From: an uncultured Candidatus Saccharibacteria bacterium
GTDB lineage: Bacteria > Patescibacteriota > Minisyncoccia > Phycocordibacterales > Zambryskibacteraceae
Reading direction: 5' to 3'
DNA length: 64,000 nucleotides
Assembly (NCBI GenBank): GCA_964642835.1
Contig: CAZXQA010000001.1
Span: 325,387 to 389,386, forward strand
The position numbers were made by a program, and so were the translations under genes. How positions within the stretch are numbered: position 1 is the first letter of the stretch; the number at the start of each line of letters is the position of its first letter. This document shows, piece by piece, positions 50,048-51,080 of the stretch. The notes below the pieces were generated by a model. The model searched no databases, was not told the origin of the DNA, and saw only the letters and a list, made by a program, of their open reading frames with translations.

Positions 50048-50076
50048 CATTGGTTTAAGTAAGCTATACTTTCCAA

Positions 50077-50382
50077 ATGACGAAAGTAATTTTCCGATGG
50101 TTTTGGATAGCCTTAGGAACAGCAATAATTTTGCATCTCATCTTTGGATTGAGTGTATTTATACACGCCCTTATTCCAGGAAGCGTCTGCTCAAACTTGG
50201 AAGGATTTGATACCCACCCCTGCACGTTCGCCGAAGCAACGCAGAGTCTCAAGGAATTACCTTATGTATTAGAAATGATTGTGATGTTTTCCTACGGCTT
50301 GTCGTTATTAATACCCCTTGCTGTAATTTTTACTGGAGGATTAATTTTTGAATTATATAAAAAGAAGAAAAGAAAGCTGTAG
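50077..50382 (+). CDS. Hypothetical small membrane protein (101 aa) in a low-GC islet.
   Basis: Three hydrophobic helices and a poly-Lys tail. The surrounding 300 bp is strongly AT-rich compared with the flanks. Confidence 0.45.
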   Translation: MTKVIFRWFWIALGTAIILHLIFGLSVFIHALIPGSVCSNLEGFDTHPCTFAEATQSLKELPYVLEMIVMFSYGLSLLIPLAVIFTGGLIFELYKKKKRKL

Positions 50383-50408
50383 TACCACTAATCGATCGAT
50401 ACGCTTTT

Positions 50409-51080
50409 CTAGATAATCTCAAACTCCTTAAAGACCTTCTCGAAGAGAGAAATGATGCGCTTGGCTTCGCGCTCCGAGAGTTCGAAGGCGCTGCCGGCAT
50501 GAGCAATACGGTTGCGAACCTTGTGGGCTTCCCAGGCATCGTCGAGGGTAAGCATGTCGGAAGGCTCCACCGCCTTGAGCATTTCCCCCACCGAGTCGCC
50601 GTGATACTGCTGCGCGCGGAGAAGCTCGTCGAGGATGATATCCGCTTCAATGATGGATTGGCGCCACCCGGCCGAAGTACCTGAGTTCAGAAGCGAGATG
50701 ACGTGTTCCCACTTCTTGTTCACCCTCTCTTCCGGCACGCCCTTATTCATAAAGAGCTCGTCCGAAATCTCCGGGCCATAAATCGTGGCTTCTTCCTTCT
50801 GAAGCGCCTTGAGCTTGCGACTGCTCTGGACTCCCCACCACGCGACGCCAAGCGTAAAGAGTACCGCGAGAGGCTTCCACCACTGCCACGCATGCGCGAA
50901 GAACAAGAGAAGATGATCCCAGAAGTTCGTCACGGGCGTCGTATTGAGCGTACCCACATAGAGCCATACGCGGTTCAAAATGATACTGATAAAGAGAAGA
51001 ACGACCGCGACAAAGATCGTCTCGTATAAATGGTTCTTATGAAATACCGAAGGCGGAGCCTTTTTCTTGTCGTCTGCCAT
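50409..51080 (-). CDS. Membrane-anchored protein with a C-terminal HEPN-like domain (R-x4-H motif).
   Basis: Two N-terminal TM helices. The C-terminal helical domain ends ...LDDAWEAHKVRNRIAHAGSAFELSEREAKRIISLF (RNRIAH fits Rx4-6H). Confidence 0.5.
   Translation of the reverse strand: MADDKKKAPPSVFHKNHLYETIFVAVVLLFISIILNRVWLYVGTLNTTPVTNFWDHLLLFFAHAWQWWKPLAVLFTLGVAWWGVQSSRKLKALQKEEATIYGPEISDELFMNKGVPEERVNKKWEHVISLLNSGTSAGWRQSIIEADIILDELLRAQQYHGDSVGEMLKAVEPSDMLTLDDAWEAHKVRNRIAHAGSAFELSEREAKRIISLFEKVFKEFEII

Follow-up and report, generated by a model that had tools for sequence, protein, structure and literature searches.

The window analyzed here is a stretch of 64,000 nucleotides from an uncultured Candidatus Saccharibacteria bacterium (assembly GCA_964642835.1, contig CAZXQA010000001.1, positions 325,387 to 389,386), and the subject of this report is a 223-codon open reading frame (ORF) within it, ORF223, which lies directly behind the amidotransferase gene gatA and close to a block of tRNA-Met and tRNA-Asp genes. 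A sequence-only reading of this DNA had assigned ORF223, together with a convergent, hydrophobic ORF of 101 codons (ORF101), to a low-GC, tRNA-adjacent islet resembling abortive-infection or defence genes. The tRNA neighbors and both ORFs lie where that reading had placed them, and are listed here with the method by which each was located; the gatA stop codon and the ORF223 start are separated by only 5 nt on the same strand. Our analyses indicate that Paceibacteria inherit ORF223 vertically, probably as a gene of the housekeeping type, and that it is not the cargo of a tRNA-linked islet.

49681-49752, minus strand: tRNA-Met (ARAGORN and Rfam)
49850-49922, plus strand: tRNA-Met (ARAGORN and Rfam)
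49974-50048, plus strand: tRNA-Asp (ARAGORN and Rfam)
50049-50408, strand not applicable: AT-rich, lineage-specific stretch from tRNA-Asp to the ORF223 stop codon (GC profile)
50077-50382, plus strand: ORF101, hydrophobic, 101 codons, coding status uncertain (ORF list)
50409-51080, minus strand: ORF223, 223 codons, convergent to ORF101 (ORF list)
50943-51032, minus strand: predicted transmembrane (TM) helix 1 of ORF223, residues 17-46 (AlphaFold helix and hydropathy)
50778-50924, minus strand: predicted TM helix 2 and cytoplasmic stalk of ORF223, residues 53-101 (AlphaFold helix)
50412-50717, minus strand: HEPN-fold domain of ORF223, residues 122-223 (AlphaFold helices)
50499-50516, minus strand: ORF223 motif R189-N-R-I-A-H194, of the form Rx4H (sequence reading)
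51086-52381, minus strand: gatA (Pfam Amidase, 459 bits; Amidase also called in the identical contig L001)
52378-52662, minus strand: gatC (GatC called in the identical contig L001)

An AlphaFold model of ORF223 built from 39 homologues has a mean predicted local distance difference test score (pLDDT) of 85, rising to 93-97 over residues 121-220, and consists of helices 17-46 and 53-101, a low-confidence linker, and helices 122-131, 136-156, 164-170, 179-198, and 203-219, with helix 164-170 forming an insert in the C-terminal domain. The residues RNRIAH (189-194), previously proposed to match the Rx4-6H ribonuclease motif of HEPN domains, lie near the end of helix 179-198, the third core helix, and that proposal was borne out by the predicted fold and by the invariance of R-N-x3-H; the accompanying statement that the protein ends in RNRIAH was not, since the motif is followed by loop 199-202 and by helix 203-219. 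In the published description of the HEPN superfamily, the Rx4-6H motif closes helix 3 or opens the loop that leads to helix 4, its arginine is followed by a polar residue, and helix 2 contributes a conserved acidic residue close to the motif (Anantharaman et al., 2013; PMC3710099). As regards the helices in which they lie, RNRIAH and D147 (in helix 2) match this description in our model. The structures matched by the model include the HepT toxins 5yep, 8xdj, and 7ae2, 1wwp, YutE (1ylm), and TT1696 (1ufb), as well as kanamycin nucleotidyltransferase, Csx1, Csm6, the HEPN domain of sacsin, and Roquin, with AbiA and LsoA lower in the list.

The motif is conserved throughout the family. RNxxxH was counted in 266 of 266 retrieved relatives (258 by the strict pattern, seven as seen in the printed sequence, and one, P0212, which has a C-terminal extension, by inference only), and across 147 representatives at 50% identity the invariant residues are W139, D147, L150, H186, R189, N190, A193, and H194, four of which (R189, N190, A193, and H194) are also invariant in a 39-sequence alignment (A1). 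E145, which shares helix 136-156 with D147, is kept in at least 90% of sequences. The only Pfam families matched repeatedly by the 147 members are HEPN families, namely Swt1 (38 members), RiboL-PSP (33), DUF4145 (7), Cthe2314 (6), and pEK499_p136 (4), with best E-values of 0.002 for Swt1, 0.0031 for RiboL-PSP, and 0.00027 for DUF4145, the last in one member. The ORF223 protein of the window itself scores 14.5 bits against HEPN_RiboL-PSP (cut-off 28.4) and has a best E-value of 0.034, such that the profiles bear out the earlier HEPN assignment in the recurrence of these families and fall short of it in score. Taken together, the C-terminal domain has, in our judgment very probably, a HEPN fold, and with its canonical catalytic-type motif it represents a family undescribed in current libraries.

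The N-terminal part of ORF223 contains the two TM helices which had been noted from the sequence. Hydropathy reaches 2.5 over residues 22-40, and helix 53-101 is predicted as a single helix with pLDDT of 89-96; W65, in TM helix 2, is invariant in the 39-sequence alignment. The mean number of lysine plus arginine residues is 4.2 before TM1, 0.18 in the loop, and 3.8 after TM2, a distribution which points to a topology with both the N-terminus and the C-terminus inside the cell. In long relatives (300-700 aa), the segment between TM1 and TM2 holds SH3_3/GW-type repeats, from one to several per protein, scoring 41.7 and 42.7 bits for SH3_3 (cut-off 27) and 34.6 for GW (cut-off 21). Repeats of the SH3b/GW type are typically extracellular, so their location between the two helices puts the loop outside and the HEPN domain in the cytoplasm, and the long members resemble receptors in architecture, with an intracellular HEPN domain. 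The protein encoded in the window is the minimal form, with an external loop of about 10 residues, as in most members. ORF223 is thus predicted to be an inner-membrane protein with a cytoplasmic HEPN domain on a two-helix anchor, in agreement with the membrane-anchored HEPN-like protein of the sequence-only reading. Among the long relatives, P0132, P0157, P0192, P0208, P0244, and P0262 (387-696 aa) contain from one to about eight repeats with the consensus GxxYWxVxFxDGxxGWV.

Homology searches with ORF223 yielded more than 1,063 homologues, of about 220-228 aa; among the 120 listed, nearly all are 210-240 aa long, and every one with a named source is a hypothetical protein by annotation, from a Parcubacteria or Minisyncoccota genome. 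A profile of the C-terminal domain matches 2,788 clusters at 50% identity, 649 of them with E <= 1e-30, and in each of the 150 matches listed no more than about 40 residues separate the domain from the C-terminus. Relatives were found in at least 583 species in a scan of one genome per GTDB species. The genomes in which we found the family are all of the Paceibacteria type. We found no description of the family in literature on HEPN families in Patescibacteria or on GatB in the candidate phyla radiation (CPR).

Gene order was compared in a sample of 80 loci, each from a different GTDB species of Paceibacteria (Parcubacteria). The gene directly upstream of the ORF223 relative is gatA in all 79 informative loci, the contig of the 80th having no room upstream, and the closer relatives L083 and L084 keep the same order. 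The intergenic gaps are mostly 1-60 nt and sometimes become overlaps, and ligA and gatC precede gatA in most of the 80 loci. Conserved synteny had been named in the sequence-only reading among the observations that would refute a mobile or defence-related islet, and for ORF223 it was observed. In one locus, L047 (3135-6978), a single strand carries gatC, gatA, the ORF223 homologue, and gatB in that order and with tight spacing; gatB was not adjacent in the other 79 loci and was not found in the 64-kb window. The gatB query was a Bacillus subtilis sequence, and its match at 38.5% identity (E = 1e-104) shows that the query works. We considered whether ORF223 replaces gatB, and rejected this possibility because gatB follows the ORF223 homologue in L047.

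Similarity to the window protein tracks between ORF223 and GatA across loci (Spearman 0.51, p = 5e-6), compared with 0.71 for GatA versus LigA. The ratio of nonsynonymous to synonymous substitution rates (dN/dS) is 0.05 between ORF223 and its closest relative, which shares 88% amino-acid identity, and the gene is under strong purifying selection. The window holds one copy. With regard to the suggestion of an abortive-infection or defence gene, PADLOC returned 0 families for either ORF223 or ORF101, NCBIfam and PHROGs searches of both gave no usable match, and no ORF223 relative was detected among 2.9 million viral contigs (IMG/VR), all of which speaks against that suggestion. It is very likely that ORF223 is not a mobile islet gene.

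The base composition leads to the same separation of ORF223 from its AT-rich neighbor. The turn to AT-rich sequence 3' of tRNA-Asp that had been noted is real, with a GC content of 37.2% at 50049-50408 against a window mean of 53.6% (z = -3.5, in the lowest 1% of 330-bp windows). The low-GC run is only 360 bp long and stops exactly at the ORF223 stop codon, and ORF223 itself has 53.9% GC and a GC content at third codon positions (GC3) of 0.70, similar to LexA, GatA, and LigA. The "islet" is therefore 360 bp in extent and excludes the HEPN-like gene, the composition of which is normal and not that expected of mobile or defence DNA. ORF101, by comparison, has a GC3 of 0.41 against 0.51-0.72 in neighboring genes. 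As had been claimed, a hydrophobic ORF of 101 codons is present; its status as a membrane-protein gene is uncertain, there being no homologue among 5.8 billion proteins, no exact copy in a 15-billion-protein collection, no relative in the viral-contig scan or in any related locus examined except the identical contig L001, and no gene called at its place in L001. Because a stop-free run as long as that of ORF101 (107 codons) arose in only 0.56% of dinucleotide shuffles, ORF101 may have come from a foreign source as a small membrane-protein gene that is still genuine or was so until recently. The stretch is lacking in the closest relative, L083, and it contains no integrase-sized ORF between 50049 and 50408; a search of 49300-50500 likewise detected no direct repeat of the 3' end of tRNA-Asp. 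Only this ORF101 stretch behaves like variable or foreign DNA, and it is a lineage-specific feature separate from ORF223. A structured RNA in the stretch was also considered, and is unlikely because no Rfam family was matched and the folding was not unusual (z = +0.85).

The adjacency of tRNA genes, which had been taken as a sign of an islet, is ancestral. A tRNA-Met/tRNA-Asp cluster lies downstream of the ORF223 relative in 68 of the 80 loci, at a median gap of 65 bp, and the adjacency is therefore no sign of integration at ORF223. What distinguishes the window is the orientation of the block: in blastn comparisons with L083, L084, L003, L006, and L016 the Met/Met/Asp block (93.5% identical to that of L083) aligns in plus orientation while gatA-ORF223 and the tRNA-Thr flank align in minus, so that the block is inverted relative to all five relatives with both flanks collinear. 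The inverted unit is probably 49681-50408, that is, the tRNA block together with the AT-rich stretch, which occupies the right-hand junction of the local inversion. In L083 and L084 a clean terminator hairpin directly follows the stop codon of the ORF223 relative, and the tRNA block comes after it; in the window this hairpin is missing after the ORF223 stop and the 360-bp stretch sits in its place. Insertions of more than 500 bp (0.5-3.4 kb) occur at the ORF223-tRNA junction in 13 of 68 relatives and the tRNA genes beside ORF223 relatives occur in many different arrangements, and for these reasons the junction is a recurrent rearrangement site. The inverted block lies between the two copies of a perfect 11-nt inverted repeat (49622-49632 and 50423-50433); we did not accept this repeat as a recombination site because its copies fall inside the coding ends of an 84-aa coiled-coil ORF and of ORF223, and because, by our own estimate, chance alone would yield about 0.2 such pairs in 1.2 kb, making a chance match probable. 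In L004, the inserted ORFs at 5687-8554 resemble nucleotide-metabolism genes (NUDIX-like and ITPase-like), as judged by eye only.

Based on these data we propose the following mechanism. ORF223 inserts into the cell membrane with its N-terminus inside, through two TM helices and, between them, an external loop of very few residues, which in some relatives is enlarged to hold SH3b/GW repeats; TM2 runs on to form the stalk, and a flexible linker connects this helix to a cytoplasmic HEPN domain of about 100 aa. R189-N190-x3-H194 at the end of core helix 3, with the invariant D147 in helix 2, makes up a full HEPN endoribonuclease signature, for which metal-independent RNA cleavage at the inner face of the membrane is the most likely mechanism, and by analogy with other HEPN enzymes the domain is probably dimeric. 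The gene would be co-transcribed with gatC-gatA, between gatA and gatB in one lineage. Because of this linkage and the fixed place beside the tRNA-Met/Asp genes, a role in translation-related RNA metabolism is suggested, rather than that of a mobile toxin. Of these points, our data show the fold, the conservation of the motif, the topology, the synteny, and the purifying selection, while we infer the RNase activity, the dimer, the co-transcription, and the substrate. As a combined statement, that ORF223 is a membrane-tethered, vertically inherited HEPN housekeeping endoribonuclease co-expressed with gatCA is the reading we favor, by a slender balance of probability; ribonuclease activity as such we consider about as likely as not. 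A broader form of this reading, in which a canonical HEPN endoribonuclease has been domesticated, across an entire class of CPR bacteria, as a core membrane-tethered housekeeping RNase that is expressed from the gatCA(B) operon and acts on tRNA or mRNA at the membrane, is put forward tentatively and is more probably wrong than right.

Several observations weigh against the housekeeping-endoribonuclease reading. Foldseek searches of the PDB gave no significant E-values, with the same HEPN toxins still at the top of the list, profile searches of PDB sequences with full-length and C-domain alignments returned chance matches only, and no HEPN model, or any other curated family, in Pfam or NCBIfam reaches its curated threshold. 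A constitutively active HEPN RNase without a partner antitoxin is expected to be toxic, and regulation of ORF223 must therefore be assumed. In Csx28, which is also a membrane HEPN protein, the motif residues lie at an oligomer interface and the protein acts as a pore, not as a nuclease. With respect to synteny, small genomes that rearrange slowly may keep their gene order without any functional tie between ORF223 and gatCA, and the counts given above describe genomes which carry ORF223 and not prevalence across all Paceibacteria.

In one alternative, ORF223 is a clade-fixed abortive-infection or stress-suicide effector, whose TM hairpin or, in long forms, SH3b ectodomain senses damage to the envelope or attack by phage and triggers the HEPN RNase, so that translation stops. 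HEPN RNases are typical effectors of abortive-infection, toxin-antitoxin, and CRISPR-accessory systems; SH3b/GW ectodomains are present in some relatives, and the lack of an antitoxin adjacent to ORF223 makes gating by a signal plausible. Membrane HEPN proteins with external domains have indeed been proposed as stimulus-dependent degraders of RNA (PMC3710099). Defence genes, however, are usually patchy and found in variable islands, whereas ORF223 is fixed behind gatA in every informative locus, has normal GC content and a very low dN/dS, and tracks GatA in similarity; it has no PADLOC, PHROG, or IMG/VR match, and most members, the window protein included, have only about 10 residues in the external loop. 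We consider a suicide effector unlikely. The same architecture could alternatively serve a membrane channel or scaffold in which the HEPN domain is non-catalytic and acts as an oligomerization, pore, or ligand-binding module, of the types known from Csx28 and from the nucleotide-binding HEPN domain of kanamycin nucleotidyltransferase. Here the motif argues the other way, as that of Csx28 is divergent while ORF223 and the relatives examined have an invariant, canonical R-N-x3-H together with the helix-2 acid, a pattern typical of catalytic HEPN domains, and no nucleotidyltransferase partner is encoded nearby; this alternative appears to us quite unlikely.

Two alternatives remain. The location of ORF223 always directly behind gatA, between gatA and gatB in L047, and next to tRNA-Asp in most relatives would suit an accessory subunit of the tRNA-dependent amidotransferase, which tethers or regulates GatCAB or mischarged tRNA at the membrane. 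Gene order is the sole basis of this idea, though, and gatB adjoins the gene in none of the other 79 loci and is missing from the 64-kb window altogether; no GatCAB partner is known to have a HEPN fold, and we regard such a role as very unlikely. The original proposal, that ORF101 and ORF223 form a horizontally acquired, tRNA-linked defence islet, can point to the clearly AT-rich, lineage-specific 360 bp beside tRNA-Asp and to the large insertions at the ORF223-tRNA junction in 13 of 68 relatives. It is opposed by the normal composition of ORF223, by the ancestral state of both its position and its tRNA adjacency, and by the lack of an integrase in the region or of a repeat of the tRNA 3' end; moreover, ORF101 is without relatives, and the two ORFs are therefore not a conserved pair. 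We regard this proposal as highly improbable.

Compared with known systems, ORF223 has a new architecture within the known concept of membrane-tethered bacterial HEPN proteins. Among the closest known proteins are the HepT toxins of HEPN-MNT modules (SO_3166, PDB 5yep; 7ae2; 8xdj) and small archaeal and Thermus HEPN proteins (2hsb, 1wwp), to none of which does ORF223 have a sequence-level match. In contrast to HepT, ORF223 has no MNT partner gene, its neighbors being gatA upstream and tRNA genes or ORF101 downstream, and it is a membrane-anchored, syntenic core gene rather than a mobile two-gene module. Three bacterial groups of TM-joined HEPN proteins have been described, for which stimulus-dependent RNA degradation at the membrane was proposed: DUF4145 with a WP-signature TM helix, Abi2/Swt1 with a single TM helix, and HEPN-2TM-Zn-ribbon (Anantharaman et al., 2013; PMC3710099). 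ORF223 resembles these groups, whose HEPN domains are likewise predicted to lie in the cytoplasm, held by an anchor in the inner membrane and in some cases accompanied by possible external sensors; it differs from them in that its two TM helices form a hairpin at the N-terminus, the loop of which contains SH3b/GW repeats in some members only, in that the HEPN domain is C-terminal, and in its fixed place in the gatCA operon. Csx28, an accessory protein of type VI-B2 CRISPR systems, is likewise a small protein, in which a TM segment at the N-terminus is combined with a four-helix bundle of the HEPN-like kind; however, it is linked to Cas13b and forms an octameric pore with a divergent motif at the protomer interface, whereas the ORF223 motif is canonical and no CRISPR genes are nearby. 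The eukaryotic proteins Ire1 (KEN domain) and C6orf70 are similar in concept, each being a TM protein whose cytosolic HEPN domain cleaves RNA at the membrane (PMC3710099), but ORF223 has no kinase domain and no detectable sequence relationship to them, and the likeness is one of analogy only.

Bacterial HEPN domains are known almost only as toxins or defence effectors on mobile or variable loci, whereas the ORF223 family, which lacks a partner antitoxin, combines an intact catalytic motif with core-gene behavior in hundreds of species of Paceibacteria. RNase Y of Firmicutes is a cytoplasmic endoribonuclease with an N-terminal membrane anchor, and ORF223 would be its functional analogue if the housekeeping reading is right, although the fold of RNase Y (KH and HD domains) is unrelated. 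If active as an RNase, ORF223 would be a new player in the RNA metabolism of very small genomes and a case of a toxin-type fold recruited to housekeeping in bacteria, as has happened in eukaryotes; a domesticated RNase would correspond in bacteria to Las1 and Ire1, HEPN proteins of eukaryotes that acquired core functions, and in some lineages RNA turnover could be linked through the SH3b ectodomain to cell-envelope or host contact. For genome scans the locus carries a caution, namely that a tRNA neighbor and a HEPN motif are by themselves no sign of a defence island.

Four further features flank this segment of the window:

48540-49103, minus strand: LexA-like gene (Peptidase_S24, E = 2.6e-24)
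49093-49314: small ORF of 73 aa, between the tRNA-Thr pair and the tRNA-Met/Asp block
49409-49663: coiled-coil ORF of 84 aa, between the tRNA-Thr pair and the tRNA-Met/Asp block
53054-55060: ligA, farther upstream of gatC (ORF list)

The 80 related loci showed no counterpart of the LexA-like gene or of the 73-aa and 84-aa ORFs within 5 kb of the ORF223 relative. Upstream of ligA, the segment 55063-62538 of the window holds a cluster of pilin-like genes (N_methyl, PilX_N) and, after it, the type II/IV secretion genes T2SSF (58566-59774) and T2SSE (60865-62538); pilin-like genes are also seen upstream of ligA in L001 (1-1537) and L084 (1-1722), and this arrangement points to a conserved type IV pilus locus adjoining the ligA-gatCA block. 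Elsewhere in the window, a second and stronger low-GC stretch (20600-21770, with a minimum of 31% GC in 330-bp windows) adjoins tRNA-Asn (21633-21709, minus strand) and contains an AT-rich ORF of 192 aa at 20982-21560 on the minus strand.

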